Translations under genes and position numbers: made by a program
In this document: positions 17,514-45,300 of the stretch, piece by piece
Position numbering within the stretch: position 1 is the first letter of the stretch
Layout of the letters: each line of letters begins with the position of its first letter
Notes under the pieces: generated by a model
Database searches by the model: none
Told to the model about the DNA's origin: nothing
What the model saw: the letters and a program-made list of their open reading frames with translations, nothing else
Origin: Ignavibacteriaceae bacterium
GTDB taxonomy: Bacteria > Bacteroidota > Ignavibacteria > Ignavibacteriales > Ignavibacteriaceae
Length of the DNA stretch: 64,000 nucleotides
Assembly: GCA_023231105.1 (NCBI GenBank)
Contig: JALNWB010000001.1
Span: forward strand, 18,276-82,275
Direction of reading: 5' to 3'

Positions 17514-19313
17514 ATGAACATATTTTTAGACGAAAGCGCAAAAAATCCCAAAGATACCGAAGAACATGTACAAAGTACGGAGGAATTGTTAGACGGTATG
17601 ATGATGGATGAAGCGTTGCAAAAACGTTTGAACGAGCAAGGAAAATCGGGGGGAATAGTTTTACCGCTTGCGGAGGAGATGAATTCCGTATTACAAGAGA
17701 TTGAAGGTTTTAATTTTGAATATTCCGGACAGCAAAGGATCATCAATTGGGAGAACATGGATGTGCCGTACCGTGTATTAAGACGGGCAGGCAATACTGA
17801 AGCGGGAAGATTGGTGAAGAACCATCGGCGGCTTGGTTTGTCGCAATATGGAAGAGTCCCAAAGGCGGACGGGATACAAAGAGGCGGCAGGCTTATCTTT
17901 TGTGATCCAGATTATTCACCCACGAAAGATGAAAAGTTAAGGTTAAGAATTTGGGAAGATAAGATTTTTAAGAATTTCTTTTTCCCGGCAAACGATAGAT
18001 GGGCGAACTTTGCAAAGTTTATTGGGAACGCTTATGAGGATTGGTTTGATTATGATGACATAACTTGTGAGATTAGGCGTGACGGATTAGGCGACCCGAT
18101 AGCGATGCATTTGCAAGACCCGATTATTTATAAACCGGTTTTGAAGAAGAGCAGGGTTTATCCTAATTGGCGAGGCGAGGAAGACTATATGACACCTTAT
18201 CTTGAAGATTGGGAAACAATGGTAACAGGTAAACGGGCTTTTATTGGTGAGGATGAATTACCGGTAGAACCGGATTTTGTATTGCATTACAATAACATGC
18301 GATTAGGAGCAACAACGGATTATAACGTAAGAAAGTTCCACTTTTTTACCAGGAGCGATTTTAGGTTTACACAAAGAGGTTACGGGATAGTTGAACAATC
18401 TATTAACATTCTAACTTACATTATTAACGCGCTGAAGATGAACGCAAGTAATTTTATGAACAACAAATTACCCAAAGGATTCGTGCTATTCACCGGCGGC
18501 GGAATTGGAGCGCTTCAGCTAGAGAAATTGAAAAAGGTAATGAGCGCGTACATGGGCGGAACCGCGCCAAACCGTTTTCCGATAATGGGATTGAACAGCG
18601 AGAAAGGGGATGGGAAATGGGTAGGGATAGGCGGGAATAGTCGTGAGATGGAATATCATTTATGGATAACATTATTGTTTTCTATTTTTTGCCGGTTGAG
18701 TGGAACAGATCCGCGCGAAGTTAGTTTAGGCGCACACAGTGATGCAATTCGACCACAGAGTATAGGGGAAAAAAGCGCGGACGGAGTTGTAAACGAGAAT
18801 AGGGATATGGGTGAAAGAACTTTTCTTACGCATCTGAAAGATTCACTTAACGTTACGGATAAATACGGATTGAATTTATTTCAGCAGATCACTCAGATGA
18901 AAGTTGAGTTGGATTTTGCCGGGTTTGAAATTGAAGATAAGAAACTAAAGCAAGAAATAACAAAGTTGAATTTACAGACTTTCAAAAGCTTTAATGATGT
19001 TTTGGCAGAAGAGGACAAAGAGAAATACACGTTAATGATTGATGAGGAGACGAATCTTTTTGACATCCCCGGAGTAAATAGTGAAGTAATAAGATCTGCG
19101 GTTCAGTTTAAGATGCAATCTTTTTCAAATAAGCAAGCGGCAGAACAGCAGCAGCAGGCAGTTGGCAGTGATCAGTCGGCAGTAGGCAATGGTGAACAAG
19201 GACAGCCAGGAGGAGAGGAAGGGAGTGACGGATTAACTGAGGATGATAAGGCGCTAATTGAAAAATACAAAGGAGCTAGTAATGTTGAGATTGATAAGGA
19301 GTTGCAGCAATGA
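17514..19313 (+). CDS. portal protein (by size and position upstream of MuF-like gene)
   Basis: This 599-aa protein is the first gene after late element copy A. It is followed by a small ORF and then the MuF/SPP1-gp7-like gene, which is the usual portal-MuF arrangement. Its acidic Gln/Gly-rich C-terminal tail contains a CAGTCGG-type heptamer array. Confidence 0.7.
   Translation: MNIFLDESAKNPKDTEEHVQSTEELLDGMMMDEALQKRLNEQGKSGGIVLPLAEEMNSVLQEIEGFNFEYSGQQRIINWENMDVPYRVLRRAGNTEAGRLVKNHRRLGLSQYGRVPKADGIQRGGRLIFCDPDYSPTKDEKLRLRIWEDKIFKNFFFPANDRWANFAKFIGNAYEDWFDYDDITCEIRRDGLGDPIAMHLQDPIIYKPVLKKSRVYPNWRGEEDYMTPYLEDWETMVTGKRAFIGEDELPVEPDFVLHYNNMRLGATTDYNVRKFHFFTRSDFRFTQRGYGIVEQSINILTYIINALKMNASNFMNNKLPKGFVLFTGGGIGALQLEKLKKVMSAYMGGTAPNRFPIMGLNSEKGDGKWVGIGGNSREMEYHLWITLLFSIFCRLSGTDPREVSLGAHSDAIRPQSIGEKSADGVVNENRDMGERTFLTHLKDSLNVTDKYGLNLFQQITQMKVELDFAGFEIEDKKLKQEITKLNLQTFKSFNDVLAEEDKEKYTLMIDEETNLFDIPGVNSEVIRSAVQFKMQSFSNKQAAEQQQQAVGSDQSAVGNGEQGQPGGEEGSDGLTEDDKALIEKYKGASNVEIDKELQQ
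19152..19193 (+). repeat. tandem heptamer array, CAGTCGG type (6 units), inside the portal gene
   Basis: The units are CAGCAGG CAGTTGG CAGTGAT CAGTCGG CAGTAGG CAATGGT. They encode QQAVGSDQSAVGNG. Confidence 0.85.
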
Positions 19314-19597
19314 TAATTATTAAAATTTGGGGGCAGAAAGTTTTAGAAGTTGAAGGAATTGAAACAAAGGGAACGGTAAATAATTTTCATTATGCTAATT
19401 GCGTGTTTGGGCAGCCTATTGTTGCAACAATGAAGAGTGAGGGGGCAACGGCACAGCGAGAGGTTAAGAGAGAAACAATATCCGAAGAAAAATATCTTGA
19501 AATGGTTAAGAAAGTTTCGGATAAAACCGGTTTTAATGCAAGTGAAATAGAATGGATTTTACGTACAGCCGAAGGATATTTGGGAGGAGTTGAATAG
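19310..19597 (+). CDS. hypothetical protein
   Basis: It is coupled to the upstream gene by a 4-nt overlap. Confidence 0.5.
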   Translation: MIIIKIWGQKVLEVEGIETKGTVNNFHYANCVFGQPIVATMKSEGATAQREVKRETISEEKYLEMVKKVSDKTGFNASEIEWILRTAEGYLGGVE

Positions 19598-20649
19598 TGT
19601 TAATCTCACCGCTTGACGGAAAAATTCTGCATTTAAAAGAATTAGGAATGATTGAACAAATCCTTTTTGAAGAGGTTATTTCTCCCGAAGATTTTTACAA
19701 GGAACTAACATCATTTCTAAAGAAGAATTACGACCTTGATAGTAGGGCGATGTTTACCACACAGGAACTTGAGCAGGTTGATTCCTTTATTAAAAATTAC
19801 TTTACTACAAAAATAAACGAAGCGAAGGTTTGGCTTTTACGCGCGTATGTAATGGGGCGATATTTAGCGCATACCGATCTAACCGGGAACATCTTCAGAC
19901 TTGGGAATTTAAGCAGCTTACCAAAATATGTAACGGACGCGGCAAAGCAGTACGGACTTAGCATTGAGGAGGCAATGGCATTACAGCAGGCAGTAGAAGA
20001 AAGCGCCGTGCTGATGACTAACACAACGCAGAGCACCATCCAGACAGTACGTGAGGCACTTGTTGAAAACGTTAAGACACGAGGGGACGGGAAAAAGTTA
20101 ATTGGCAAGTTGCGGGAACTTTGCAAGGATGACGTGGGCGAAATTAATAGGAATTGGAAAAGGACAGCAATTACTGAAGCCAATTATATTTTTAATAACG
20201 GTTTTATATCAATGCAGGAAGAAGGCGCTTATGTTGTTGGACTAAGCATGCCGGATGCTTGCGGATTTTGTGCCGCTGAGATTAACGGGCAAGTTTTTAA
20301 AGTAAGAAAAGATATTCCGCCGGATTACACAACTATGAAGGGAGCGGAATATGAGAAGTGGGCGAAGGTTTGGGAAACTGAAATTTGGGTAGGTAAAAAT
20401 AATTACGGCAGAAGTACAAGCAATCGTAAACGGATTGATAAGCACAGAGGGAATAAGGAAGATAATTTGCGGGAGAAAGAACATCATGAACATTCGATGC
20501 CCGTTTGCCCGGCACACCCAGAATGTCATTGCAGATGGGTTGGTATTAAACCGGAGTTTATGTGGATTGACGAACATGGACAAATGAGGGCACGGGTTGA
20601 AGATGAAGATAAATGGCAAGAATGGTACGAGAATACAATTACGAATTAG
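19597..20649 (+). CDS. MuF / SPP1 gp7-like minor head protein
   Basis: NWKRTAITEANYIFNNGFISMQEEG matches the R.ARTE...A.N.G signature. The C-terminal HPECHCRW corresponds to the HPnCRC motif. A GTG start follows GGGAGGAG. Confidence 0.85.
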   Translation: MLISPLDGKILHLKELGMIEQILFEEVISPEDFYKELTSFLKKNYDLDSRAMFTTQELEQVDSFIKNYFTTKINEAKVWLLRAYVMGRYLAHTDLTGNIFRLGNLSSLPKYVTDAAKQYGLSIEEAMALQQAVEESAVLMTNTTQSTIQTVREALVENVKTRGDGKKLIGKLRELCKDDVGEINRNWKRTAITEANYIFNNGFISMQEEGAYVVGLSMPDACGFCAAEINGQVFKVRKDIPPDYTTMKGAEYEKWAKVWETEIWVGKNNYGRSTSNRKRIDKHRGNKEDNLREKEHHEHSMPVCPAHPECHCRWVGIKPEFMWIDEHGQMRARVEDEDKWQEWYENTITN

Positions 20650-20657
20650 GAATTAGG
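20635..20657 (+). repeat. tandem heptamer array, AATTAGG type
   Basis: The units are CAATTAC GAATTAG GAATTAG GA. The array contains the TAG stop of the MuF-like gene. Confidence 0.8.
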
Positions 20658-20667
20658 AGAAAACATT

Positions 20668-21581: not shown

Positions 21582-21594
21582 AAGGAACAAAGCA

Positions 21595-22047: not shown

Positions 22048-22055
22048 GAATTAAA
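22042..22055 (+). repeat. heptamer pair, AATTAGG type
   Basis: The units are AATTAGG AATTAAA. The pair contains the TAG stop of the gene at 21595 and abuts the ATG of polyvalent protein 1. Confidence 0.7.
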
Positions 22056-22057
22056 AA

Positions 22058-25000
22058 ATGTTTTTATATAAGTTACCGGATTATGAAGGGGGATTTGTTA
22101 CTAAATCTATTGAGTGCAATTGCATAGTAACAAGAGATGCAAACGGGCACTTGCTGGACAGTAAACCGGTTAATTGTGTAAAGAAGGGAGTGAAAACAAA
22201 TTTTGGAAAGGTTGTGGATTATTCGAAGAATTTTGTAATTCTGAAAAAAGGGACTGAGCTTAAAAGGGTGAAAAGGGAAGTTCTGAATAATATTTTGTTA
22301 AAGAGTTTGGAACAACCCGAGATAACTTTAGAAAAGATAAAGGTATCGGGAAAATTTAATACACTTGCGGGGAAAGTGTTGGTAAAAAGTGAAAGTGAAA
22401 TTGTTAGGGATGTATTAACTGATCCCGATAAAGTTTTGAGTAAGGGGAAAAGTGTTATTTTTTCTAAGACGATAAATGGGAAAGAGGTTGAGGCTAAGGT
22501 TGAGAAAACCTCAATGTTTATGAATACGTTTTTACATAAAAGTATAACCGTAAAGGAAAGTGTTGCGGCGAAAAGAATTTTAATAAAGGGAATTGCAACA
22601 ACGCTTAGAGCGCCGAAGGTGTTTAATATTCAGTCGGCAGTCGGCAGTAGGCAATCGACAATGGGTGGAACTGCATGGAACGCGAAAGGGGGAATGAAAC
22701 CGAATCATAAGTACATTGAACGGAAACCGGCGAAAAGTGGAGACGGGTATATTTATCTGTATGAACTCCCTTCCGGTAAAAAGGAATGGAGAGATGAAGC
22801 GGGAAAAGCTGTTGAGGGGGGACAGACGAGCGCCGATTATCAGTTGGAAGATTTTAAGGTGGGCGACATTGTTAGGCAGGATAATAAACTCGGCCGGATA
22901 ATGGAAGCATCAACAAATATGCTTGCGGTAAATTTCGGCGGGGAAATGAAGGTGATCAACAAAAAAGAGCATGTTGAAAAGGTTAAGCAGCATCAACTAA
23001 TGAAGGAAGGGGCCACGATGCAGTATGAGGGGAACGATGCAAAGATATTGAGGATAACCGGCAAAGCGGCATTGATAAACACGGCTGATAATAAGCTAAA
23101 GGTGATCAATCTTGAAAAGCAGTTGGAGAAATACGAACCGAAGAAAGAGGAGAAACGGTTAAATAAATACAGTGATGTTTACCAGGGTGAAGCGGAGCGA
23201 AGGATAGGGAGCGGGGGAGCGGATAATTACAACATCAGTTATGAAGAGCAGCCTAAGTATAAAAATTTTGTTGACGCGGCGAAGAAAACGGGATTTGGGA
23301 GAAAGAACGATCTTGAAATGGTGAAGCGCGTTGAAACGGAAAACGGGCTTAGAACGGTAAGGTGGAACTATAACCCGGAGGATCAGAATATTAGTTTTAT
23401 GGTTGACGGGAAAGAAGATTATACTATGAATTTTATGGGGAAGAAGTATAAAATAAGGGATATTACGGAAGACGGTTACAGTTTGGAAGATGCAGAAACT
23501 AAGGAACGGGGATTGTTCCTTTCTCACAAAGATTATAATAATGATTTGAAACAACAAAGAGACGAGGAGAGAAAGAATGTTGTAGTTGAAAGAACGGGAG
23601 GGGTGAACGGATTTGAAACGGTTAAAGAACCGGCGCGAACTTTTAGGTTTAAACCGGAATACAGTGATGAAGAAAAAGAAAGGTTTGAGAAACGAGGGGG
23701 AAGAAGACCGAGCCGATGGACGCGAAGAAAAGATGAACCTTTGCAAAGCGAAGAGGAGAAGAAACGATTAACTGAATTGCAGGACGAGAGGGATAAAAAG
23801 AATAAGGAAGTTTTGGGAACGAAGGATTTTGCAGACTTTGAGAAGTTACACAAAGAGAGAGGCTTTACAATTGGTGCAAATAGATTCCATGCAGCAAAAG
23901 AAATTGAGGCAGGCGGAAGAACATTCAGAATAAAGAGTGAGTTTAAGCCGGAGAAAATGAGCTGGCAGACTTCCATCGATGGACCTGTTAAGAAATTGCA
24001 GTTGGGAGAAAAACATTTACCGATAACGGATATTTCAAAAGATAAAGTTTTCTACCACGAAGGGGGGGATGAAAAAAGTATAACCTTTGATGAGTTGAAA
24101 ACGATTAACGGCAAGAGTTTGTTTGAACCCACAAAAGAGAGTAAAGGAATTGTAAGTAATTTAGATCCGGTGAAGATATATTTTGACGATAAAGATGTAA
24201 CGAGCGGGACTTATGAAATTGTTGAAGCTAATGAAATAATTGCTTCCCACAAAACGGATGGAACGCCAAACAGAGATTACACGATATCAGACGCGCAAAA
24301 TAGAGACCGCAGCACTCCGCAAAGTATTGCACAAATAAACAAGATCGCAGCGAATCCGAATTTTGACTTTTTAAGCGACAGTAAGACCGCGCAGGACGGC
24401 GCACCCATTGTTGATGAAGATTATAACGTAATTGCCGGGAACGGGCGGGGAATAGGCGTACAGCTTCATTACAGCAACAAAGGGGAGAAGTATCGAAATG
24501 ATCTGTTGAAAAAGGTTGAGAAGTACGGTTTTAGTCGAGACGATGTTGAGAAGATGAAACAGCCTATTTTGGTAAGGCGAACGAATGTTGACGCAAAAGA
24601 GGCGCAACGATTGGGAGCAATTAGCAATACCTCACAGATGCTTGCAACAGAGGAACGGGAAGCGGCAAAAGGAAAGGCAACAAGAATTGATGACGCTACA
24701 ATAAATAATTTAGCCGATATGTTCACAAAAGGGAACCATGAATCACTTAATCAATATTTGGATGAGATTGGACCGGATGTGGTAGGTGAGTTACTGAAGA
24801 AGAAAATTATCCCGGAGAATGAAGCGCACTTGTATATTGACCCGAAGAGCGGGAAAATGGATGCAGGGCACAAAGAAAAGGTTAAGCAAATATTAACGCA
24901 ATCGGTTTTGGGAGAGAGCAGTAAGCATTTTGAGAAGATACCGGAAGCGGCGAGAGCGGGAACGGTTAAAAGTCTTGGAGATATTTTTGCGCTGAAGGGG

Positions 25001-27154
25001 AAAGCGGGTGATCTTGTTCCTCACTTACAGGAAGCGATAAAGGTTTTAGCAAAGTATGAAGCGGTTAAGAATAACTTTAAATCGCCGGATGATTTTGTTA
25101 AGCAGGCGGCAAATGACGCATTTGAACCGTTGAAAGGAAGTAAAGAAGGATTGGCTTTATTTGATCTATTAGCAGACCCGATAAGAGAAGTAACGAAGGA
25201 AAACGGAAAGAAGGAAAAGAAAAACGTAATAAGTGATTTTATCCGTAAATATAAGTTAAGTTTAGAAGGGGATATGTTTGGCGAAGGCAAACCGGCGAAG
25301 GAAGCGTTTGATGAAGTGTTCAAGCCGAGGTACGAGAAGGGAGTGAATAAGAGTTTGTTTAGCAGATTGCGTATATTTGGTAAAAAAGTTTTTATGAAAT
25401 CTGTTGATACGACAAAGAATATTTTAGCGCCGAGTAAAAAGAATCCGGGTGTAAAACGTTGGCAAAAGGTTGAGAGCGGAAAGTTGAAAGTTGCAAGTGG
25501 AAAGGTTGAGGATAAAACACAAGTGACAAGTGACAAAAAGCAAGGGGAAGAAAAGATACGACTAAAAGATGTAACAAAATGGCATGAATACACAAAAGGA
25601 AGAATGATTGAAACAATTAGAAAAAATGCCGTAGAAGGATTAAATAAAGAAATAGATAAACATCAAGCAGAAATCAAATCATATGTATATGTTCCCGATC
25701 CTTATGATTTTCGTGATACAGAGAACCCAATAGAAATTAGTTTCTCGGGAAAAGAAAAAACAGGACAACCTATAATTATCAGGAATGGATTTGAATATAA
25801 ATTTGCATATCAGAGCAATAAATACGATAGATATGATAGATCACTCACAGATAAAGAGATGCAAGAAAAAACAGACAAGAAGAAAAAAGACATCCAATGG
25901 TTGATTGATTATAATAAAAAGAAAATTGACGATATTAATAATGGTTTGATAGATAATAAATTGTTTGACGAAGAGCAGAAAAGAATTGCAAAAGAAAAAG
26001 ACGACCGAGAAATTGAAATCGCAAATAAATTCTATCCAAGTAAAAGTCTTTCCCGATCTTTAAGGGATATAACAGGAAAGAAACTAGGTTTGTCTTTGCA
26101 CGACTTTCATGATGCAAAGGGTAATTCGGCGTATATAATAACTGATAAATTTAAAATACGATTTTCTGATCATGAGAGTAGAACTGAACAGGATTTCTAT
26201 AGATTGGATGAAAAGGATAAACCTTTTCGTCCAGTTGAATATGAACCAGAGGACATTGACATAATAATTTACAAAGACCGGAGAGGGGACGCTGTTGTTA
26301 CAATCGATGGGAATAACTATGGAATTGCGGATTATAATATTGATTCAATTGAAGATTTAAGCGAGTTCATACTTGAAAAGATAAATAAAAAAGTCGTTGA
26401 TTCCGTAGAACCAACGACTACAAATGAAAGCAAACCACAATCGCTTAAGACAGAGCCGAACGCTAAAAGCGGAGCGGATGACTTAGGCAGTGATAAACGT
26501 GCCGAAGCACAGACGAAAAGTAGTGAAGAGAAAGGAGAAAAGCAAATACCGCAAACGGAGACGGAGAATTTTAAGAAGTGGTTTGGGGAGAGTAAGGTAG
26601 TGGATAGTGAGGGGAAGCCGTTGGTGGTTTATCATGGCAGCAAAACACAGTTTGAGGTATTTGATAAAGTAAATGGCGAATCATCATCTTCCGGTAGATT
26701 TGAAGGGTTTCACTTTGGGACATTAGACCAAGCCAAAATGCGGAACGGTAAAATGGTTATGGCTCTGTTTCTAAAAGCTGAAAAATTACAACGGAGTAAA
26801 GATGAAGGAGGTAGGTGGTGGAAGAAAATTCAATCTGCAAAAAGTAGAAATTATGATGGCATAATTTATTTGAACAGATATGAAGGCATCCCTCTTGAAG
26901 AATATGATGAAGCAGAAAAACGAGGAGTTAAAACAGATGCCGATTCGCTTGATCGAATGAGTGATGAGCAATTTAGAAAAAATTTCCCATCAGCAAAAGA
27001 TAGCTATATCGTTTTTTCTCCAACTCAGATTAAATCCGCTATTGATAATGACGGAAGTTTTGATCCGGAGAATGCGGATATTACCAAGGGGACGAAAATA
27101 ACGAGGCGGATAATATTTAAGAAAAAGAAGAAGGATGAAACTTTTTTATTGTAG
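22058..27154 (+). CDS. polyvalent protein 1 (1698 aa): ParB/Srx-like domain plus C-terminal ART-PolyVal-like ADP-ribosyltransferase domain
   Basis: An HKYIERKPAKSGDGYIYLYE motif is present. A ParB-like block is present (YEIVEANEIIASH...QNRDR...INKIAANPNFDFL...GAPIVDEDYNVIAGNGRG). The C-terminus FKKWFGESKVVDSEGKPLVVYHGS...YIVFSPTQIKSAIDNDGSFDPENADI matches the ART-in-polyvalent-proteins signature as I recall it. Confidence 0.85.
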   Translation: MFLYKLPDYEGGFVTKSIECNCIVTRDANGHLLDSKPVNCVKKGVKTNFGKVVDYSKNFVILKKGTELKRVKREVLNNILLKSLEQPEITLEKIKVSGKFNTLAGKVLVKSESEIVRDVLTDPDKVLSKGKSVIFSKTINGKEVEAKVEKTSMFMNTFLHKSITVKESVAAKRILIKGIATTLRAPKVFNIQSAVGSRQSTMGGTAWNAKGGMKPNHKYIERKPAKSGDGYIYLYELPSGKKEWRDEAGKAVEGGQTSADYQLEDFKVGDIVRQDNKLGRIMEASTNMLAVNFGGEMKVINKKEHVEKVKQHQLMKEGATMQYEGNDAKILRITGKAALINTADNKLKVINLEKQLEKYEPKKEEKRLNKYSDVYQGEAERRIGSGGADNYNISYEEQPKYKNFVDAAKKTGFGRKNDLEMVKRVETENGLRTVRWNYNPEDQNISFMVDGKEDYTMNFMGKKYKIRDITEDGYSLEDAETKERGLFLSHKDYNNDLKQQRDEERKNVVVERTGGVNGFETVKEPARTFRFKPEYSDEEKERFEKRGGRRPSRWTRRKDEPLQSEEEKKRLTELQDERDKKNKEVLGTKDFADFEKLHKERGFTIGANRFHAAKEIEAGGRTFRIKSEFKPEKMSWQTSIDGPVKKLQLGEKHLPITDISKDKVFYHEGGDEKSITFDELKTINGKSLFEPTKESKGIVSNLDPVKIYFDDKDVTSGTYEIVEANEIIASHKTDGTPNRDYTISDAQNRDRSTPQSIAQINKIAANPNFDFLSDSKTAQDGAPIVDEDYNVIAGNGRGIGVQLHYSNKGEKYRNDLLKKVEKYGFSRDDVEKMKQPILVRRTNVDAKEAQRLGAISNTSQMLATEEREAAKGKATRIDDATINNLADMFTKGNHESLNQYLDEIGPDVVGELLKKKIIPENEAHLYIDPKSGKMDAGHKEKVKQILTQSVLGESSKHFEKIPEAARAGTVKSLGDIFALKGKAGDLVPHLQEAIKVLAKYEAVKNNFKSPDDFVKQAANDAFEPLKGSKEGLALFDLLADPIREVTKENGKKEKKNVISDFIRKYKLSLEGDMFGEGKPAKEAFDEVFKPRYEKGVNKSLFSRLRIFGKKVFMKSVDTTKNILAPSKKNPGVKRWQKVESGKLKVASGKVEDKTQVTSDKKQGEEKIRLKDVTKWHEYTKGRMIETIRKNAVEGLNKEIDKHQAEIKSYVYVPDPYDFRDTENPIEISFSGKEKTGQPIIIRNGFEYKFAYQSNKYDRYDRSLTDKEMQEKTDKKKKDIQWLIDYNKKKIDDINNGLIDNKLFDEEQKRIAKEKDDREIEIANKFYPSKSLSRSLRDITGKKLGLSLHDFHDAKGNSAYIITDKFKIRFSDHESRTEQDFYRLDEKDKPFRPVEYEPEDIDIIIYKDRRGDAVVTIDGNNYGIADYNIDSIEDLSEFILEKINKKVVDSVEPTTTNESKPQSLKTEPNAKSGADDLGSDKRAEAQTKSSEEKGEKQIPQTETENFKKWFGESKVVDSEGKPLVVYHGSKTQFEVFDKVNGESSSSGRFEGFHFGTLDQAKMRNGKMVMALFLKAEKLQRSKDEGGRWWKKIQSAKSRNYDGIIYLNRYEGIPLEEYDEAEKRGVKTDADSLDRMSDEQFRKNFPSAKDSYIVFSPTQIKSAIDNDGSFDPENADITKGTKITRRIIFKKKKKDETFLL
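22631..22665 (+). repeat. tandem heptamer array, CAGTCGG type (5 units), inside polyvalent protein 1
   Basis: The units are CAGTCGG CAGTCGG CAGTAGG CAATCGA CAATGGG. They encode QSAVGSRQSTMG. Confidence 0.9.
25470..25539 (+). repeat. tandem heptamer arrays, TTGAAAG type (6 units) then ACAAGTG type (3 units), inside polyvalent protein 1
   Basis: The first array is TTGAGAG CGGAAAG TTGAAAG TTGCAAG TGGAAAG GTTGAGG. The second, at 25519-25539, is ACAAGTG ACAAGTG ACAAAAA. Together they encode ESGKLKVASGKVEDKTQVTSDKK. Confidence 0.8.
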
Positions 27155-27773: not shown

Positions 27774-27794
27774 AATTAGGAATGAGGAATTATG
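27774..27794 (+). repeat. tandem heptamer array, AATTAGG type (3 units)
   Basis: The units are AATTAGG AATGAGG AATTATG. The last unit contains the ATG of the DPPY methylase. Confidence 0.8.
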
Positions 27795-28436: not shown

Positions 28437-28556
28437 ATGAACGGCAGGATGAGAATAGGCGAAGCTAGGTTTAGTTACTGGACAAATAGAGAGAGAAAAG
28501 AAGTTGCCGGGAATGAAGATCAATTTAATTTATTCACCCAGACCGAGGCAGCGTAA
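28437..28556 (+). CDS. possible small ORF (39 aa) coupled to the DarB-like gene
   Basis: The ATG follows TAGGAATAGGA, and the stop overlaps the next start (TAATG). It carries no motif. Confidence 0.25.
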   Translation: MNGRMRIGEARFSYWTNRERKEVAGNEDQFNLFTQTEAA

Positions 28557-34500: not shown

Positions 34501-34672
34501 TAATTATAATATAAGACAACAAGATAAACACGGCGATTATTGGCTTGAATCCGGGAAGATAACACCCGAGATGTTAGATAGGGCGCGGGCAATTGATGAG
34601 ATAAAGAGTGATGACAACAAAGATTTATTAGAGGATATACTTACAAATAAACTAAGAGGAGAAGCGGCATAA
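28556..34672 (+). CDS. polyvalent protein 2 (2038 aa): DarB-like N6-adenine methyltransferase plus SNF2/DEAH helicase
   Basis: MTase motif I is VLEPSMGTGIF and motif IV-like is AIVGNCPFGKRG. The helicase motifs are GVGLGKTLEAL (I), LVRDEAHDTKN (II), GLTATPISNSPLE (III) and QIEQGNGRGIRQGN (VI). This architecture matches phage P1 DarB. Confidence 0.9.
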   Translation: MKLFGMTIAKSKDKPKLLKAFGVILKAFGTQLGMFNDEVIEGQTKQKDGHSYVVKRSNKNPLVKRLFRADKEESKPKELSLFDKKVTVGSRQSAVGNRAESKPPKAEPIRHTEQPEAKDDLFNQPKEERKEPKAEIKVVKGKKNRKEINAKVEELLKTKKNDEMSAEDVELLAQYTGRGGLLGDTLEDISLNEFYTRKDEAEFIWDMIGKLGFKGGNVLEPSMGTGIFVETAPEKALVTGIEIEETSGRIGQILHGNEHDIRIQSFEQFVKDYDNMGADLEGGEYDAIVGNCPFGKRGLSAMDDREKSDIKFHEQYFIDRGLDMLKPGGIMAMIVPTSIMDNQLNQWRGEVNKKGEFLGAIRVPTGAFKHTDAQVTTDIVFFKKRPPEVIDHLNKLSKEELGEAYDDMVMDADFVSGNFFKNNPEYALGTETSGMFGMKIWKGDITKADLEKVGELLNHEARDYSSLGIDVSKYGELEKELEPGDVKILNGRTYILNKNHRWERLKDQEVVLQNLPEDIKKLGITSWDEWRIKSEDTAYLYGLDKDQLKLFGQTRIVNELDGYNGKNDFQTEYLTKGVVLGLAVKDFRKELQDGRLSAEEAQMEAGKLKILLKDFIEKYGHPIENLKLNKFFKNSGNAPLLNLAGSYDKNGNTIKMFDDPLSFYKVYQTKSEIGTVDRNNIVSVIGFLFANNFPTDYQTVRGEYEGDGDIERELAYSDEIYFDEEGNYKPKEEVLYGYIYEKIDAWEKQRTELKKESKNEKLSDKEKELNAQKMRKLEDQIIEAKTRANIREIKQLPIMLSDAGSIYDIGILNKYLEEKIGAHFLGELRKDEKSGFILPVDESSAKLYLSYADITKEGKSTDVKRELRDLFNKDEHPLLFMILNKMNGLGLPALRTEEGIAKKEQVLQLETDFKQYLSDSEEADKIADTYNRLFNSYIQKTYDEKPIEGIKHFAYDRVVGKDASGKDITGKDKAGGHTWATVRRMYEQGKGMIAHGVGLGKTLEALTLTLLSKETGRANKPCIVSPKSVLLNWVAEIEKWTHGVNYLLVGYSKKNESEGWTEENTIEDSREVKELKLQRAANEDFDMILMSRDLFGTIDFSPETKKNMLNELMDKYYPEGNRLSTFSDGDSKYAKNVKKKRDTLLRNLSEMMDIPEPLGGVYLDNIGIDMLVRDEAHDTKNLLVPMESEISGVNSSTSQRAMHNLFASKIIRGQNNDMGYFGLTATPISNSPLEVFNMMVPFAEKELEKLQVQNMDDFVSRFADIDNIPTTSADGRVIVKNKFSGWKSAEALRNTFFRFVDYKTKDDVESVKANIKFPKEKAANVLSDLNEGQKEIVKHCKLRLWMLSSRVFDKDNKTWDFNADKLQEKVGEGLISQDEATEVLNYFNDEYLPKYEALNARLGPDDTPNDDHFFKVQQDLIKATSDLPWYKDKHSEYSKEVDDDLVKQHSDLKKFAQLNESALSIHKSGGKQIIFAINTALHEKIKNDLVKSGIPENEIVIVNGKTVSSSSKRLQISKAYNDGKYKVVIGNYATMGEGLNFNYMTSDIHHLQPAWNHLQIEQGNGRGIRQGNPLDSVNTHYYLTKGSIDGFMNTKIMDKAGMVDKFLKGETSRWDDEVQLEADEMMIELADNPEQAKALLAFRNKKLQDALAEQQRQSNYKQLDRLYEVKRKKSGMAEKTSKQYQMMEQEERSLTEKLIEANFEHKGKLDYDRTPVILPGINKVIPVGGILEGKSGEFYVVEDYAPSTQRVKIRTYKAGTQGDMVGTRAISAKELDKEFNALHKETDLDLGGMFKKIIDDNEEVGINFISKIPKEILQINKVKLLEKLNNTDEVLYQTMDGDFKVADYESAKDEIATEGGKIIFPQEKPEFPKILNELIKLHKPKQNWGEGYYQFRKYKNFATSIYGENYENAIKKEIKRLNGEATETSFAIHTTGAKYKKTLKDLADNGYMNDYTYKRIMQGKAYDELSEFSNALRAEFFDNYNIRQQDKHGDYWLESGKITPEMLDRARAIDEIKSDDNKDLLEDILTNKLRGEAA
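28815..28849 (+). repeat. tandem heptamer array, CAGTCGG type (5 units), inside polyvalent protein 2
   Basis: The units are CAGTAGG CAGTCGG CAATCGG CAGTCGG CAATCGG. They encode VGSRQSAVGNR. Confidence 0.9.
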
Positions 34673-35500: not shown

Positions 35501-35983
35501 ATGGAAGTGTGTGACGTAGACGAGGAAGTGTTAGAAAAGTTAATAAAAGAATTTACTGATGAATTTGGTGAAGAAGTGCTTAAGGAGGTTTACCGATTTC
35601 ACCGGAAATTAGCTAATAAAATGTATGTGAAGAATTTTCCGGCAGCGGAAATTTATCATAGACTTTTGATTAAAGATATCCGCAATGGTAAGTATGCAAA
35701 TATGAGTGTACGTGCAATTGCGGCGATTGAAAAGGTTAGTGAAGGTACGATCTATAACATTATCGGGAAAGCGTGTAGAGTTAAGAAACCGATTTATCAA
35801 TACTCGGTTAGGGGTAAATTAATAAAGAAATGGAACAGCGGAACGGAAATAGAAAAAGAATTGGGCTATAATGCAAGTCCAATACGGGCAAGCTGTAGAG
35901 AGGGGAACGATAGAGCGACTTATGGTTTTGTTTGGAGATACCAGGAGCTAACGGGAGAAGAACTTTTGGCAATTAGGAATTAG
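35501..35983 (+). CDS. DNA-binding protein: HTH plus NUMOD1-like module, no nuclease domain (candidate transcription regulator)
   Basis: MSVRAIAAIEKVSEGTIYNIIGKA is an HTH resembling sigma region 4 or resolvase. PIYQYSVRGKLIKKWNSGTEIEKELGYNASPIRASCREGNDRATYGFVWRY matches the NUMOD1-type DNA-binding module of homing endonucleases. Confidence 0.5.
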   Translation: MEVCDVDEEVLEKLIKEFTDEFGEEVLKEVYRFHRKLANKMYVKNFPAAEIYHRLLIKDIRNGKYANMSVRAIAAIEKVSEGTIYNIIGKACRVKKPIYQYSVRGKLIKKWNSGTEIEKELGYNASPIRASCREGNDRATYGFVWRYQELTGEELLAIRN

Positions 35984-35984
35984 G
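35971..35984 (+). repeat. heptamer pair, AATTAGG type
   Basis: The units are AATTAGG AATTAGG. The pair contains the TAG stop of the gene at 35501. Confidence 0.75.
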
Positions 35985-36026
35985 ATAAAGTTTACATTAT
36001 TTTTACAAGATAAAAAGGAGCTTCAA

Positions 36027-38019: not shown

Positions 38020-39453
38020 ATGGACGATTTAATGTTTGGCGAACTTGCCGTAAACGGATCAGCTTATGGCGGCGCATCAACAGTAAAAGAACTCCAGGAC
38101 TTAGCCAAAGCTCTTGAGGTTGGTTATGCGATGGGGACAACGGACCAAACCGGATTTGGAGCCACAAGACTTGAAAGCCTTGACCCGGTTGTAAAATGGC
38201 TTACCCTAAACGAATCTTCCCCGGCATTCTTTAGAGCAATACGAAAAGGGAAGGCTTCCAGCACGGTTGAAGAATTTGTAACCATGAATGAGGTAGGAGA
38301 TGCTAATTTTTATTCTGAAGGCGGATTACCGGACGAATATGATGAAGATATCCGAAGAGAATTTGAGCAGGTAAAATACATCGGAACCGTAGGTAAAATT
38401 CCTTTGCAGGCTTTAATGGTAAAAAGCAATACCAATAACGAAGCGCTTGTTACAAGAGCCAAAGCACTTGCGATAATGAAAACCGCAGATAGCAAAATAA
38501 TCTATGGTGATGCTGCTCGTAATCCTTACGAATGGAATGGTTATTACAAACAATTTAAAACAAAAGCAAAGAATGTAAGCCAAAACACAATTGATTTGCG
38601 CGGTAAACGTGTTAGACCGGAAACCTTAAATGAATCGGTACAAATTATTGCCGATAACTGGGGAAACGCAAATAACGTAAAATGCTGGATGAGCGCCAAA
38701 GATTTTCAATTTTATACCGATGAATTGTTAGCCGGTAGAAGATTTGTGGTAGGAAGTTCTGAAGCCCGTGATCTTATCGCTTCCGCGAAAAGATTTGAAC
38801 TTGGGAACGGAAAAGGAAATATTGAAACCGATATTCTTTTGAAATACAAGGGTCAAAATTATATAGGCGCAGAGTATCCTAAAACAAACACCGCGATGAC
38901 AGTATTTGCAGCAACAAACAGCAAAGCACCAGCCACCCTTAACTCAAGCACTGCAACTATTTCAGTTGATACTGATGCAGCTACCTTGCTTGACGCAGCA
39001 ACTTACGATTACGCATTTGTACCGGTTAATAAATACGGTGCGGGCGCAGCATTTGAAGTTAAAACAAACGTTGTTGCAGCTTCTAAACGCTGTACTTTTA
39101 CCTTAACTGATAACGGTTCACCTTCAGGACAAGAAGCAACAAGTTTTGATATTTACCGTAAACTTTCATCCGCAACTGCAATTACAAGTTATAGATATTT
39201 AACTTCGTTTACAGCAGCCGAAGCAAAGATCGATAACGGTGAATGGATACCGGGAGCGACTAATATTTTCTTATGGGATTGGGACTTTGAACAAGTACTC
39301 GATTTCCGTCAATTACTGCCAATGACTAAGATGGGATTGGCTCAAATTGATGATTCCAAGAGATGGATGCAAAAATTATGGGCAGTGCCGATTCTTGTAG
39401 CACCAAACAAAATGGTGATGATAAAGAACGCGGGTTCTACTGCTTGGGCTTAA
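38020..39453 (+). CDS. major capsid protein
   Basis: This 477-aa protein lies directly after the protease-scaffold gene, and GGAG lies upstream of its ATG. A large hairpin follows it. Its N-terminal segment shares a 26-aa motif with the protease-scaffold protein. Confidence 0.7.
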   Translation: MDDLMFGELAVNGSAYGGASTVKELQDLAKALEVGYAMGTTDQTGFGATRLESLDPVVKWLTLNESSPAFFRAIRKGKASSTVEEFVTMNEVGDANFYSEGGLPDEYDEDIRREFEQVKYIGTVGKIPLQALMVKSNTNNEALVTRAKALAIMKTADSKIIYGDAARNPYEWNGYYKQFKTKAKNVSQNTIDLRGKRVRPETLNESVQIIADNWGNANNVKCWMSAKDFQFYTDELLAGRRFVVGSSEARDLIASAKRFELGNGKGNIETDILLKYKGQNYIGAEYPKTNTAMTVFAATNSKAPATLNSSTATISVDTDAATLLDAATYDYAFVPVNKYGAGAAFEVKTNVVAASKRCTFTLTDNGSPSGQEATSFDIYRKLSSATAITSYRYLTSFTAAEAKIDNGEWIPGATNIFLWDWDFEQVLDFRQLLPMTKMGLAQIDDSKRWMQKLWAVPILVAPNKMVMIKNAGSTAWA

Positions 39454-39539: not shown

Positions 39540-39971
39540 ATGGTTAAGCATACATACCTTAAAAATTTAACGTTAAATGTACCAACTTCCGTTAACAGTA
39601 CGGGCAAACTTCACTTGGATGAAGACGGTTGTATAGTTGAGGAATTGAGTTTTGAGCAAGAGAGCGAATTGATTGATCACCCGGATTTTGTTACAGTAGA
39701 AAGTGAAAAGTCGCAAGTAGAAAGCAAAGAGTTGCAATCCGCCGAAGGCGGAGAAAGTAACGATCAAGAGAACAACCAAGAGCAAGAAGAAAAAACCGCA
39801 GAGCAAGAGAGCGGAGAAAATTCTGAAGGGAAAGCCGGGGAACAATCCGAAGACGAACTAAAAGAATTGGATACTAAAATTGTAAACGGGAAAGGGTTCA
39901 TCTACAAGAAAAACGTGAAAGATGTTTTGATGTGGTTACGGCATCCAGAGCTTGATGAAAAGGGTAAATAA
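39540..39971 (+). CDS. hypothetical highly acidic protein
   Basis: A low-complexity tract is present (ESEKSQVESKELQSAEGGESNDQENNQEQEEKTAEQESGENSEGKAGEQSEDE). Confidence 0.5.
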   Translation: MVKHTYLKNLTLNVPTSVNSTGKLHLDEDGCIVEELSFEQESELIDHPDFVTVESEKSQVESKELQSAEGGESNDQENNQEQEEKTAEQESGENSEGKAGEQSEDELKELDTKIVNGKGFIYKKNVKDVLMWLRHPELDEKGK

Positions 39972-40340: not shown

Positions 40341-41417
40341 ATGAAGACAATAAAAAAAGGGATTTCACAACTTATAACCCTTGATCAGACATTATTAGGC
40401 AGCGGAAAACACGTTTACTTGACGATGATCGGTGAAGACGGTTCGGTGATTAAAAACTCTTCAGCGGCAGATATAAAAGATTTATCACTTTCCTACAACG
40501 CAACTTCATCTCTCTATGAAGCAGCCGTAACTGTAGCCTCGGATGAGCCGGAACAATATGTCCGGCTCTTCTTTTATGCTACAGACGCGAACGTAGAGAA
40601 TAAATATTATCCGGAAGATGCAAAATTGGAAGCAGTAGCCGGCATAATTACAACCGAGGCTGAAATTGTACCGGTACAGTTTTTTATTGATTATGTTCTG
40701 GCTTCTTCAAGCAGATTAGACCCGGCGTATGAAGCGGCGATAACGGCTTTTTCGGAGGATAGAGCGGGATTAAGAAGTTACTTAAAGAGCGCACAAGATA
40801 CTCTTGAAAAACAATGCGAGCTTTATTTTACCGAACGGACAAAGACCGAGAACCGTGATAATTATTTTGAAAAATTCAGTATGAATCTTTGGCAAATACA
40901 AGTTTATAACCCACCAATAAATGATTTAACAAGTGTAAAGATAAAGTACGGCAATACCGAGTTAATGGGTATTGGTGTTGATCTTTTTACGTTTGACCGC
41001 ATGACGGGAATAATTGAATTTTTACCTTTACCAACTGGTGGAACAGCAGGGCTTTATACTTTGCTGTTAGGCAGTTTAAGCGCGTTGGGTTTATCTGTTT
41101 TAACCGGCGGAGCGCTGGAACGGATACCAAACTTTTTTGAGGTAACGTACAAAACGGGGTTAGTTTATGCAGGCGCAGACCCGTTTGAAGTTGAAGGGAT
41201 AAGACAGGCTATTTGCCGCAGAGCATTCCTAAGTTTGGTCCATCATGTAGATCCCGCGGCAAGAGTAGTTAGCGAAAGTGAAAGCATTGACGGAGTTGCA
41301 AGCAGTATTAGTTCGGGAGTTGCTAAGGTAATTACCGAACTGAAACAGGACGAAGTAAGTTATTTAAACGGTTTGCGGCAGAAGTACGGGAAGAACTTTA
41401 ATGTAGTTATCGGGTAA
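40341..41417 (+). CDS. virion structural protein (head-completion/neck candidate, by position)
   Basis: The ORF sits in the head module and has no recognisable motif. Confidence 0.45.
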   Translation: MKTIKKGISQLITLDQTLLGSGKHVYLTMIGEDGSVIKNSSAADIKDLSLSYNATSSLYEAAVTVASDEPEQYVRLFFYATDANVENKYYPEDAKLEAVAGIITTEAEIVPVQFFIDYVLASSSRLDPAYEAAITAFSEDRAGLRSYLKSAQDTLEKQCELYFTERTKTENRDNYFEKFSMNLWQIQVYNPPINDLTSVKIKYGNTELMGIGVDLFTFDRMTGIIEFLPLPTGGTAGLYTLLLGSLSALGLSVLTGGALERIPNFFEVTYKTGLVYAGADPFEVEGIRQAICRRAFLSLVHHVDPAARVVSESESIDGVASSISSGVAKVITELKQDEVSYLNGLRQKYGKNFNVVIG

Positions 41418-41443
41418 TTAGGAATTAGGAATTAGGAATAAAC
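41416..41443 (+). repeat. tandem heptamer array, AATTAGG type (3 perfect units plus 1 degenerate)
   Basis: The units are AATTAGG AATTAGG AATTAGG AATAAAC. The array starts inside the TAA stop of the gene at 40341. Confidence 0.9.
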
Positions 41444-41575: not shown

Positions 41576-42360
41576 AAATTATTGATGAAAATATTGTACG
41601 GAGTCTAAGACGGTTCGGGCAAACGGTAAAGCATTACCCGGGCACGTTGTGCAGTTGCATTGGTGAAAATAACGGTGTGCCGTTATTAAACCATACTTGC
41701 AACCAGGGTTATTATTACGGAGCGCCGGAAACAATTATTGCAATACGCACGGCGATATCTTACAAATACCTAAACACGCCGCAAGGGGTAATTTATGACG
41801 GAGGCGCAACATTTACCATCCCAAGATTGAATTTAAGCGGAGCCGAACAGAGAGCTTATTCTGTTATTACGCACGGAGATATTTTGGTTTGTGATAATAA
41901 GACCAGACGTGACACAGATATACTGAAGCGTGGAACCCGTGATTTTATTTACGCTTTTGATATTACCGAAGTAATTGGCATATACCGTAACAACACAAAA
42001 TATGATGCAACGGATTACACAATTATTGAGGATGATTATAAAACGTTACTTGGTGATGACGGTTTACCGCTTACCGATGAGAACGGAGTACCAACGGGAG
42101 AAGTAAGAGACAAAGCGGATATTGTGGGTAAATTAATGGCGGTTGTTTGGGCAACCGGCAAAGGACCGGCAACGGGTGAAAGTTACACGGTGGAATTCAT
42201 TTGTGCTCAACAGTTTAAAGTATGGGAAGATGCGGGAAGTGATAGGGGAACGGATGAAAACAGACTACCGAAAAAGATGCTTACCGTATTAAGAAGATTT
42301 GTTACACCGGTGGAAAATAACCTTGACACCGTAGAAACGACACAGGAGTTGTACACATGA
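41569..42360 (+). CDS. virion structural protein (by position)
   Basis: An ATG ORF coupled by ATGA to polyvalent protein 3. Confidence 0.45.
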   Translation: MLKIIDENIVRSLRRFGQTVKHYPGTLCSCIGENNGVPLLNHTCNQGYYYGAPETIIAIRTAISYKYLNTPQGVIYDGGATFTIPRLNLSGAEQRAYSVITHGDILVCDNKTRRDTDILKRGTRDFIYAFDITEVIGIYRNNTKYDATDYTIIEDDYKTLLGDDGLPLTDENGVPTGEVRDKADIVGKLMAVVWATGKGPATGESYTVEFICAQQFKVWEDAGSDRGTDENRLPKKMLTVLRRFVTPVENNLDTVETTQELYT

Positions 42361-45300
42361 TAATTACATTATTTGGAAAGTCAATAAAATTTGGGAAGAA
42401 CCCGAACCAGATAGATATGTTTGCAACCGCCGGAGCGGAAAAGGAATTTGCGCCAGGGGATAAACGCAGACTTGAACTTACAAGCGGCGGGAAGTTGCGT
42501 TGGAAGAATGCGGATGAGGAAGGGAGTGGAAAGTTGAAGGTTGAAAGTGGAAAGAATGCAACTCCGAACAATCAAAACATTAGAGAGGAAAAAGGTTTAT
42601 TCAAAGAAGCGTATGAACAAACGCAAGATGAATATGCGCAAAAGATGTTCAGAGGACCAATAGCTGAAGTTAAAAAATTTAAAGACCCGAATGATTTGGA
42701 AGATATTGCAATCTCTAACGAACAGCACAAAGTTATTATTAAACACGCTATTCGAGAAGGTAAAGAGATCCCGGATGCAGTAATTGAACCTTACAAAAAT
42801 TCGCATTGGGCGAAGGAATATTTGAGTAAAAAAGTTGATTACTCACAAGAGCTTATAAACACCGCGCAAACAAGTAAGACTTTCGATAAGTTTTTAACAA
42901 ATGTTAGAATCCATGTATTCCCAAACGAGTTTCTTAAAAAAGAGTTGGGGTTAGGAGATGACAACGTACAAAATAGAAAAAAACTTAATGACTATTACAA
43001 CAGGCAAAAAGCAGAGCATAGAGAACAACGTAAAAAAGATAAAGAAGAAGGGGATAAGGCAATTGCCGAATTGCATGTAGATCAAATAGAAAAATTAGCA
43101 CTTCAACAGTATGGCGGGAAAGTGGGGAAAGAAAAAAAGATTGATGATGATAAAATTGCAGAGTTGTATAGGAATAGCCCGATATCTATTCAAGTGGATA
43201 AGATGAGCAATAAAGCGCAAGAAATTTATAATAACGCCGGGAACCAGGCAGAAAAACAAATTGCATTTGATCTTTGGAATTATGGGAATGGGATACAGGA
43301 TGAGTTTGTAGAAAAGTACGTTAAAGGGGAAAAGATAAGTACTGAAGATGTTATGGAAGTAAAGAGAATTGCAAACATATTGATAAAAGGCGCTGATGAA
43401 GAATTTGAGAAAGTAAAAAATGGGAGTAAGGCAAAAATTACGATCAAGAAAAAGAAAGAAGAGCCGGTTAAAAAAGAACCTTGGGAGAGAACTTTATCGG
43501 ATATGATACAAAATGAAATTACAAACCGTGAAATTTTTGGACCGGAAAGTTATCCTAAATGGATAACGGATAATACTAAAGTGGAAATTGCAGACCGAAG
43601 AACCGGAATTGTTTATGATCATTTTACTCTTGCAAGCCCAACACAGGAAAGATTAAAACATTATGGGAAACTTGCACATTATGAAATTATAAAGCGAGCC
43701 TTAGTTGACGGCAAGCCCGTACCGCCGGAAGTGTTGAGGGATTATCCGGAGTTGGAAAAGGAAACTTCACTTATAAGTGAATTACCTTTTACTGCATCAT
43801 TAAAAAAAGATTTAGAAAGTTACGGCGAAAAGACAAAAAATATTTTAGTTGAAGGGACGTATCAACCATTTGCTGATTGGTTTAAGAAACAATACCCGGA
43901 TCAAGAATTTAAAATCGGTAAACATCAAGATGGAGGACCATTTATCGCTATAACTGGAGGAGGAGAAATTAGATATTCAGCTTATCAGAAAGATAATTCT
44001 GAAAACGAAATAAAATTATCAAAGTTAAAAAAACGGAAAGAAGTTCTTGGGGAAAAACTTTACTCCGAGAAACTTAAAAATCACAAGAAAGTATCTAATA
44101 TTGGTTTTGGCACAAATATGAGGGGATATCAAAAAACGAAACAATTAAGTTTTAGAAGAGAAGATGAATTGCAACAAAAAATAAAAGAGATTAACGAAGA
44201 AATAAAAGATTTATTACCAAAGAATGTTAGTGAATCAAATAAAAGCATCTTCAAAAATTTATTTAAAGCCTTTGGGAAACAAATATCAATGTTTGGAGCG
44301 CAGCCATATCAAAAGGAAGGGCAGACGAAAGAGGGACGCGGAGGCACGTTGAAATTAACGAGGGACAGCTCGGGAAAGGGAGCGCATTGGAAGTTAGTCG
44401 GCAAAGGGCAATCGGCAGTGGACGGTCAGCAGTCGGCAGTTGGCAGTGGGCAAGAAAAACAAACTGGCGGAAAGATAATTACTCCGGCTAATGCTTTTGA
44501 ATTGTTGCAGGATAAAATTGGTAATAGTGTGTTACTGCAGGACAATGAAGGAAACTTGTTAGGTGAGGGAGCGTTACAGCTTGTGAACGAAAACAGTGAA
44601 GGCAATTATTCTTTGTTCTTAAAAGAGGCAAATGGATTTGATTCTCTCGTATCGATACCAAAGAACCAGGCAGTTGTACAGAAGGAAGACGGGATAAGTT
44701 TTAAGTTTGCAGATAAGAATATTTTAATATCAACAATTGAGAAAAGCAAAATTCCCAATAAGCCGGTTGAAATGGAAAAAGCCGAAGAGAACGCGAAACA
44801 TGCGCGTAACTTAGAGAAGATGCGGAATTTTAACGAATGGCAAAAGAAAGCCGACAGTTATGCAAGAACAGCGAACGGGCAAAAGGATTGGTTTTTTGGT
44901 GATATGGAAATTGCCGCCGACGCTGAAGGTTTAGAGTTTGGAGTGAAGAACCGCATCATTAAAAAAGCCGATACACTGTTTAAGGAAATAAAGAGGAACG
45001 CAACAAGGGATGATAAGGCTGAGATATACAGCGCACTAATCGGAGCATTTGAAGTGAAAAGCGTTGCTAAGGCAAAAGCTGTTATTTCCAACTTAAAGAA
45101 GAAGGGGTATGAAATAGACGCTGATCAGTTGGACCAACCGAAGGATAAAGAAAACTTTTTTACAAGGATAAAAATAAGCAAAGGGGAAAACGATCCTTTG
45201 CCGAAGGAGTTGCAGTTTGCAACCGGTGAATATGCCTTGGCATTTGAAGAGTGCGCGAAGAAACCAAATCCTTTAAGAGAAACAGAAATGAGTTTGGGCT

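Follow-up and report, generated by a model that had tools for sequence, protein, structure and literature searches.

The 64,000-nucleotide (nt) stretch of contig JALNWB010000001.1 analysed here (the window) is DNA of an uncultured phage of 39% GC, in which the + strand is strongly purine-rich and carries every gene. Four of its genes, encoding the portal protein and three large polyvalent proteins designated PV1, PV2 and PV3, contain tandem arrays of 7-nt units of the CAGTCGG type. An initial annotation, made from the DNA letters and their translations, had placed arrays in these four genes and had attributed them to a DNA-level process rather than to selection on the encoded peptide alone. 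All four arrays were recovered by two kinds of repeat search, and the codon choice within them and their behaviour in related phages support the conclusion that a DNA-level process, beyond peptide selection alone, produced them.

Arrays in four genes of the head module

The four host genes are listed below, with lengths in amino acids (aa).

17514..19313, + strand: portal gene, host of the first array; 599 aa in the list of open reading frames (ORFs), assigned to phrog_11117 (portal protein)
22058..27154, + strand: PV1, host of the second array and of an array of another unit, GAAAGTN; polyvalent, 1698 aa, with ddrB-ParB and ART-PolyVal domains (Pfam/PHROG)
28556..34672, + strand: PV2, host of the third array; polyvalent, 2038 aa, with an Eco57I-type methylase and an SNF2 helicase, DarB-like antirestriction
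42357..46385, + strand: PV3, host of the fourth array and of a GAAAGTN array; polyvalent, 1342 aa, with a zeta-toxin or polynucleotide-kinase-like domain

The arrays themselves are as follows.

19152..19193, + strand: portal array, six units (CAGCAGG CAGTTGG CAGTGAT CAGTCGG CAGTAGG CAATGGT), in the C-terminal tail at aa ~547-560; peptide AVGSDQSAVGNG
22631..22665, + strand: PV1 array, five units (CAGTCGG CAGTCGG CAGTAGG CAATCGA CAATGGG), aa 192-203, flanked by the conserved blocks KVFN and GGTAWNAKGG; peptide QSAVGSRQSTMG
28815..28849, + strand: PV2 array, five units (CAGTAGG CAGTCGG CAATCGG CAGTCGG CAATCGG), aa 87-98, following a conserved 85-aa N-terminal domain; peptide TVGSRQSAVGNR
44395..44452, + strand: PV3 array, about eight looser units ending in CAGTCGG CAGTTGG CAGTGGG, aa 680-698; peptides QSAVDGQQSAVGSG and VGKGQSAVDGQQSAVGSG

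Tandem Repeats Finder (TRF) calls a period of 7 at all four sites, with 68-85% matches. A scan of the window for three consecutive CARTNGG units, allowing up to two mismatches, returned 13 matches in four clusters, which are the four arrays and all lie on the + strand; 100 dinucleotide shuffles give an expectation of 0.02. The period-7 signal that the initial annotation proposed to look for is thus clear in the window, where 7 is the only tandem period that is over-represented. As in heptanucleotide families of simple sequence repeats (SSRs), at least three units stand head to tail at every site and one type of unit recurs at four loci in four genes. Such families are predominantly intergenic, and here all four arrays are inside ORFs.

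A perfect 7-nt repeat reads as the same 7-aa repeat in all three frames, and every array therefore encodes a permutation of QSAVGSR. Translation of the four arrays confirmed the related in-frame peptides with a 7-aa period. QSAVG-like peptides occur in no other ORF of the window, the capsid protein included. The regions flanking the arrays have no detectable homology among the four genes, apart from a weak 'EGQTK' stretch shared by PV2 and PV3 (E=0.11), and with this reservation the earlier description of similarity between otherwise unrelated gene regions stands.

The 'EGQTK' stretch belongs to a module of the form 'EGQTK...DG..Y..(K/T)R(S/D)' that adjoins the arrays in PV2 (aa 31-58) and PV3 (aa 640-672), with 37.5% identity over 40 aa, and a similar stretch, 'GDGYIYLYE', lies 3′ of the PV1 array (aa ~225-246). 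Together these may represent a small domain shared by packaged proteins. An internal start codon after the array was considered as a general feature and rejected, an ATG being present in PV1 only.

All four array-bearing genes belong to the head module of the phage, and the genes for a head-maturation protease (36575-37951) and the major capsid protein (38020-39453) lie between PV2 and PV3. Each of PV1-PV3 combines several unrelated effector domains in one polypeptide and is encoded beside portal, protease and capsid genes, matching the class of virion-packaged polyvalent proteins and the Dar proteins of P1 (PMC5512222). The module resembles the P1 Dar set in having a ddrB-ParB/ART protein, a DarB-like protein and a separate N6/N4 methyltransferase (27792-28424). 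The major capsid protein is only 27-28% identical to capsid proteins of Bacillus and Bacteroides myoviruses, a DNA similarity search of the window against cultured phages gave zero matches, and a protein database search with the PV2 N-terminus also gave none. No tRNA genes were found in the window, nor any Rfam matches. GC and AT skew are positive throughout positions 1-64000 with no switch. A repeat of another kind occurs in the 1022-aa ORF at 55522-58590, where two 33-nt tandem repeats (2.4 and 2.0 copies) are found at 55955-56133.

Codon choice and arrays in related phages

The nucleotide periodicity of the arrays exceeds what their peptides require. When codons for the four array peptides were redrawn according to codon usage in this genome, an average of 46.2±5.2 bases matched the one seven positions further along, compared with 89 observed, and none of 20,000 draws reached 89. 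The arrays are also built from rare codons: TCG accounts for 11% of Ser codons in this genome, GGC for 14% of Gly, GTC for 3% of Val and CGG for 13.5% of Arg. Ranked by codon rarity among all 12-codon windows, the arrays fall at the 0.6th (PV2), 1.3rd (PV1), 4.7th (PV3) and 29th (portal) percentiles, PV2 having the rarest-codon window of the four. Periodicity beyond that of resampled sequences, combined with rare codons, makes peptide selection alone insufficient as an explanation.

Relatives were taken from IMG/VR loci (labelled L001 and so on). Nine of these loci encode portals 49-88% identical to that of the window, and additional loci were used for the PV2 and PV3 comparisons. The clade appears small, given that a metagenome scan with the PV1 linker region returned five loci, of which four look like relatives already included here and one is a distant relative (L370). 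The array of the portal gene is specific to the window's lineage: the portal tails of eight relatives read MGG(G)MPGQPG where the window has AVGSDQSAVGNGE, and carry no array. In PV1, the linker between the invariant KVFN and GGTAWNAKGGMKPNHKY contains an array in two lineages, that of the window and that of L007/L003, the latter with its own version (CAGTCGG CAGTCAG CAGTGGG CAGTCAG), and short unrelated linkers of S, G, P and N in the other four (L001, L002, L004 and L009). The arrays of PV1 and of the portal gene have therefore been gained or lost independently of their conserved flanks, which was the outcome that a comparison of orthologues was expected to reveal under a DNA-level origin.

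The PV2 array is more persistent. VGSRQSAVG is retained in five lineages (window, L371, L373, L374 and L375), with exactly three extra units (+21 nt; peptide VGSRQSAVSSRQSAVGNR) in L373 and one unit altered to RPAVG in L374; the PV2 of the distant relative L378 is without an array. In PV3, L364 and L365 have eight clear units where the window has six, with a compensating downstream change and a net difference of 9 nt. Copy number thus differs in unit steps between relatives, as in heptanucleotide SSR families, in PV2, in PV3 and in an intergenic array described below. Relatives encoding the same peptides with non-periodic synonymous codons were not seen, and the periodic codons are retained. 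The attribution to a DNA-level process over peptide selection alone is accordingly borne out by four kinds of evidence, namely the resampling, the periodic codons of the relatives, the unit-step lengths and the gain and loss of arrays.

The peptide is nevertheless not free to change once it is present. Between the window and L371, all 13 residues of the PV2 array are identical and 6 of the 13 codons differ silently, compared with 24% of same-residue codons differing across the gene, which indicates that the PV2 peptide is under purifying selection. The DNA of this array is not unusually conserved, its nucleotide identity being 85.7% compared with 89.0% overall. Within the heptamer, variation falls on positions 3 and 5 whatever the codon phase, at the cost of a residue change in some cases (S/N, R/G), and positions 1, 2, 4, 6 and 7 are fixed even at four-fold sites (GGC in 13 of 14, TCG in 13 of 14 and GCA in 15 of 17). 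Position 5 is fixed in one place only, the Ser codon, where A would give the stop codon TAG.

Larger changes occur next to the PV2 array. In L373 and L374 a module of ~150 aa (aa ~109-261, with the motif YHATGG...GRGLYLGKD) is inserted, and in L375 one of ~90 aa (aa ~96-185); the insertions start 8-17 codons downstream of the array (compared with window positions 28873-28901). The PV2 array therefore marks a joint at which modules are exchanged and domains gained and lost.

Other heptamer families and known repeat systems

Two further heptamer families occur in the window. The first, AATTAGG, is the only family here that is predominantly intergenic.

16877..16897, + strand: AATTAGG array, intergenic, ~20 nt upstream of the ribosome-binding site and of the ATG at 16914
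20637..20658, + strand: AATTACG/AATTAGG array, intergenic, extending into the ribosome-binding site of the ORF that starts at 20668
27774..27794, + strand: AATTAGG AATGAGG AATTATG array, encompassing the start codon (27792) of the methyltransferase gene together with its ribosome-binding site
35971..35985, + strand: (AATTAGG)2, at the 3′ end of gene 35501-35983
41416..41439, + strand: perfect (AATTAGG)3.4, directly after the stop of gene 40341-41417

The second family, GAAAGTN, was absent from the initial annotation and is a second in-frame family, read as VESGK(L/S)K, with six matches compared with 0.10 expected.

15482..15509, + strand: GAAAGTA array, intergenic, within the leader of a gene whose start is at 15515
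25478..25501, + strand: GAAAGTN array in PV1, in frame; peptide KVESGKLKVASGK
39695..39737, + strand: degenerate GAAAGTN-family array (TRF period 21) in a 143-aa ORF that follows the major capsid gene; peptide VESEKSQVESKE
42524..42554, + strand: GAAAGTN-family array in PV3; peptide GSGKLKVESGK, with 27 nt at 92.6% identity to the PV1 copy

The GAAAGTN family is also found in frame in the PV2 of L375 (L375 ~1750-1790). The initial annotation had proposed kinship between the CAGTCGG-type unit and AATTAGG. One intermediate, AAGTAGG, does adjoin the AATTAGG array at 16863; the two units share only a loose skeleton, and a link between them is not demonstrated.

Relative L002 differs from the window at several of these sites. 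Its orthologue of the array at 20637 has two more units (+14 nt) between flanks conserved on both sides, and AATTAGG copies in L002 number 7 and 4, compared with 2-3 in the window. The leader that precedes ATGTGTGTAA contains GAAAGTA units in the window (15482-15509) and (AATTAGG)7 in its L002 orthologue (7948-7996); different heptamer families replace one another at a single leader site. L002 also has (TCAGTTA)3 at 18868-18894, intergenic and just after a gene stop, as the 5′ arm of a hairpin that is followed by a T-run; this looks like a terminator made of heptamers.

Outside the clade, three consecutive GGCARTN units are present in at least 120 contigs of IMG/VR and in at least 120 contigs of genomes that span many phyla; most of the contigs are GC-rich. 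A frequent form is (GGCAGTA)n, in which all frames contain a stop, and in the loci inspected the arrays lie between genes, often as inverted pairs. Many GC-rich viral and bacterial contigs (among them L012, L014, L016, L036, L038 and L055) have inverted array pairs 50-100 bp apart, several per 10 kb, and in the two contigs whose gene maps were checked (L040 and L105) the arrays are between genes. Specificity of the GGCARTN unit was considered and dropped, because the permuted unit GCGARTN, which shares the ART core and is not an independent control, also occurs in at least 120 contigs; the period rather than the unit seems to be what is general.

In-frame arrays with coding signatures, deep inside ORFs, were found in four Mu-type portals, downstream of the portal domain (L020, L053, L069 and L106). 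Other unrelated phages have in-frame arrays in proteins with a Phage_portal domain (L072 and L294/L276), in the inter-domain linker of a terminase (L331) and near the end of a protein that resembles a tape-measure protein by inspection only (L345). The arrays of unrelated phages represent two different units, mostly in GC-rich contigs, and those in portals are found where the portal domain ends or beyond it. The encoded peptide follows the unit (QSAVGS in one case, IANSELR in the other), and the common factor across in-frame arrays is their location in flexible segments, not their peptide. In-frame heptamer repeats may have a general hotspot, or a safe harbour, in portal tails.

Tandem repeats of heptamers have been on record in bacteria since 1990. 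Their over-representation among bacterial SSRs was reported in 2007, and slippage tied to the polymerase footprint has been proposed, according to PMC4692102. The arrays of the window resemble the heptameric SSRs of prokaryotic genomes, such as the STRR of Calothrix and Nostoc, in having tandem 7-nt units, in the presence of one unit at many loci, in copy numbers that vary between relatives and in an origin that is unexplained, with polymerase slippage as the proposal. In contrast to those repeats, which are mostly intergenic, the CAGTCGG family is exclusively within ORFs and in frame; it occurs in a phage genome of 39% GC, and its arrays are short (5-8 units) and imperfect.

A closer parallel in position is provided by the TAACTGA repeats of Beggiatoaceae, cyanobacteria and Bacteroidetes, which are mostly located just upstream of start codons and, in their stop-free orientation, occasionally within ORFs at protein edges or between modules, where they encode LSVISYQ (PMC4679880). 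The AATTAGG arrays are likewise mostly close upstream of start codons, and the 7-aa LSVISYQ corresponds to the QSAVGSR of CAGTCGG. In-ORF copies of TAACTGA are exceptional and occur in small hypothetical proteins, whereas here the hosts are four large virion or polyvalent genes. The units also differ (CAGTCGG, CAATCGG and CAGTAGG), the complement of TAACTGA being represented only by (TCAGTTA)3 in L002. The GGGAATC and GGGGA(C/T)T repeats of Xanthomonas and Nostoc (PMC4692102) are similarly G-rich heptamers that vary in length and sequence between close relatives. They are intergenic, sometimes in inverted pairs, and their GGG or GGGG runs can form G-quadruplexes; units here contain only GG, and a G-quadruplex role, which was considered, is not indicated.

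SSR contingency loci of Haemophilus and Neisseria (PMC2651432) also have units in coding regions that are not a multiple of 3. In contrast to these, no out-of-frame alleles were seen here, the tracts are short and imperfect, and the behaviour of the arrays is that of a stable linker and not of a switch. PV1-PV3 are like phage polyvalent and P1 Dar proteins in being multi-domain effectors encoded in the head module; the account in PMC5512222 covers domains and peptidases, a term search of it found neither 'linker' nor 'low-complexity', and linkers made of nucleotide repeats are apparently untreated there.

Explanations of the arrays and their significance

We hypothesize, with a probability of about 0.6, that the arrays are heptamer repeats born by slippage or recombination, filtered into disordered linkers and retained there as QSAVGSR spacers. 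They would be in-frame members of a genome-wide 7-nt set in this phage clade, in which 5′ leaders carry AATTAGG and ORFs carry GGCAGTN and GAAAGTN. Units would be added, lost or copied in 7-nt steps, the generating process being either slippage during replication or recombination of an unequal or ectopic kind. Selection would then keep only those arrays whose unit is free of stops in its reading phase (TCG being kept where TAG is a stop), whose net length change is a multiple of 3, typically the 21 nt of one QSAVGSR turn, and whose site is a disordered inter-domain linker or the tail of a large capsid-associated protein. The QSAVGSR peptide would act from that point as a hydrophilic flexible spacer under ordinary purifying selection. 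The excess 7-nt periodicity, the length differences in unit steps, the gain and loss of arrays between conserved flanks and the placement in linkers are observations, whereas the generating process and the spacer function are inferred.

Several observations weigh against this account. Slippage alone leaves the seeding of four unrelated genes by one unit unaccounted for, and arrays as imperfect as these, with no more than two identical adjacent units, should slip rarely. The indels anticipated by the initial annotation are present as unit-step differences between relatives (+21 nt, +14 nt, and 8 compared with 6 units) and absent among three near-identical isolates, in which the arrays are identical (two other samples share the identical neighbouring methyltransferase), so that the arrays are not hypermutable. 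The PV2 peptide is not neutral, as its perfect conservation despite the excess of silent codon changes makes plain. Between the window and L371, silent sites changed at four of five positions of class 3 or 5 and at one of nine others (Fisher p=0.023), which hints at selection or constraint at the level of the sequence. The disorder of the linkers, finally, is suggested by alignment variability and by a single-sequence structure model that is poor (pLDDT 42) and carries little weight, in which residues 150-217 have no secondary structure.

The peptide itself could be what is selected. QSAVGS(R) would then be a shared motif that the head-maturation protease or an embedded peptidase recognizes or cleaves, or else a signal for targeting to the capsid, and it would mark the proteins carried inside, namely the portal tail and the packaged Dar-like polyvalent proteins. 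The setting would suit such a motif. The four host genes share the head module with the neighbouring genes for the protease (36575-37951) and the major capsid protein. Packaging is the presumed fate of phage polyvalent proteins, and DdrB of P1 undergoes proteolytic processing (PMC5512222). Changes within the PV2 motif are mostly silent across the five lineages that retain it, and the middle base of the Ser codon is fixed in 13 of 14 cases. We nonetheless consider this explanation unlikely. The motif is conserved at the orthologous position in PV2 and PV3 and is absent from most PV1 orthologues and all other portals, specifically from the PV1 linkers of four of six lineages and from all eight other portals examined, with flanks 65-88% identical. 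It is also missing from the capsid protein, the canonical substrate, and from all other ORFs of the window. A need for the peptide would not impose rare codons with a 7-nt period, and the portal tails of other phages have different heptamer peptides, such as IANSELR, at the same position. In another reading, the skeleton CAnTnGG is a cis-acting DNA or mRNA site for a sequence-specific factor and could cause translational pausing or have a regulatory role where domains meet, much as has been proposed for the TAACTGA repeats that precede start codons. This reading draws on skeleton positions that are retained even where silent, in contrast to positions 3 and 5, which vary whatever the codon phase, on the rare-codon clusters in PV2, PV1 and PV3, on the + strand location of all four arrays, on the related arrays just upstream of start codons in this genome, and on the arrays of CAGTCGG-type units in other genomes, which are often mixed at the same two positions. 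It is improbable in our view, because the PV1 and portal sites are not conserved in orthologues, no RNA structure signal was detected at the arrays (z -0.8 to +0.1) and no Rfam match, the portal array is not codon-poor (29th percentile), the strand bias is expected where all genes are on the + strand, and no candidate binding protein was identified. We hold similarly doubtful the broader proposal that heptamer arrays are cis-acting elements both in 5′ leaders and at the domain boundaries of giant virion proteins, controlling translation by pausing or re-initiation, or module exchange. If it were true, it would provide a function for the long-unexplained excess of 7-nt repeats in prokaryotes, and would include the portal tails of unrelated phage families.

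The arrays might alternatively serve as short homology cassettes, favouring recombination between polyvalent genes and thereby driving the shuffling of domains. One sequence of 20-35 nt is common to four genes, whole-module insertions of ~150 aa (L373/L374) and ~90 aa (L375) adjoin the PV2 array, and the homology of L375 to the window stops right at the array. The breakpoints in L373 and L374 are ~17 codons downstream of the array rather than within it, no chimera with the array at a PV1/PV2/PV3 junction was seen, and recombination 7 or 14 nt out of register would break the frame, all of which leaves this a rather slim prospect. Phase variation, in which a change by a single 7-nt unit would throw the gene out of frame and silence a polyvalent protein in a fraction of the population, follows naturally from a unit that is not a multiple of 3, and both alternative frames do stop 2-14 codons after every array. 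The same stops mean that a shift by ±7 reaches no hidden ORF, a candidate that was considered and rejected. All alleles seen are in frame, in at least six lineages and the three near-identical isolates, and together with the stops this argues against a switch; the arrays are, moreover, short and imperfect, unlike the long perfect tracts of known contingency loci. We regard phase variation as very improbable.

The arrays have an anatomy that is known from bacteria and is found here in a phage, and they extend an existing puzzle rather than define a new system or mechanism. What is new is that one unit family is exclusively in frame, that in-frame heptamers occupy the linkers of three Dar-like polyvalent proteins and a portal tail, and that portal tails recur as hosts of in-frame heptamers in unrelated phages. 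The reasons for the period of 7, for the spread of a unit to many loci and for the role of bacterial heptamers are a standing puzzle, for which a small phage genome may be more tractable than the chromosome of a cyanobacterium or of Beggiatoa, given that it has three heptamer families, both leader and in-frame arrays, and relatives that differ by whole units. In practice the consequence is a modest one, an insight into annotation and evolution. The arrays mark flexible joints of the Dar-like polyvalent proteins and of the portal tail, with modules coming and going at the PV2 joint, and joints marked in this way help to delimit domains and to understand the assembly of giant injected proteins.

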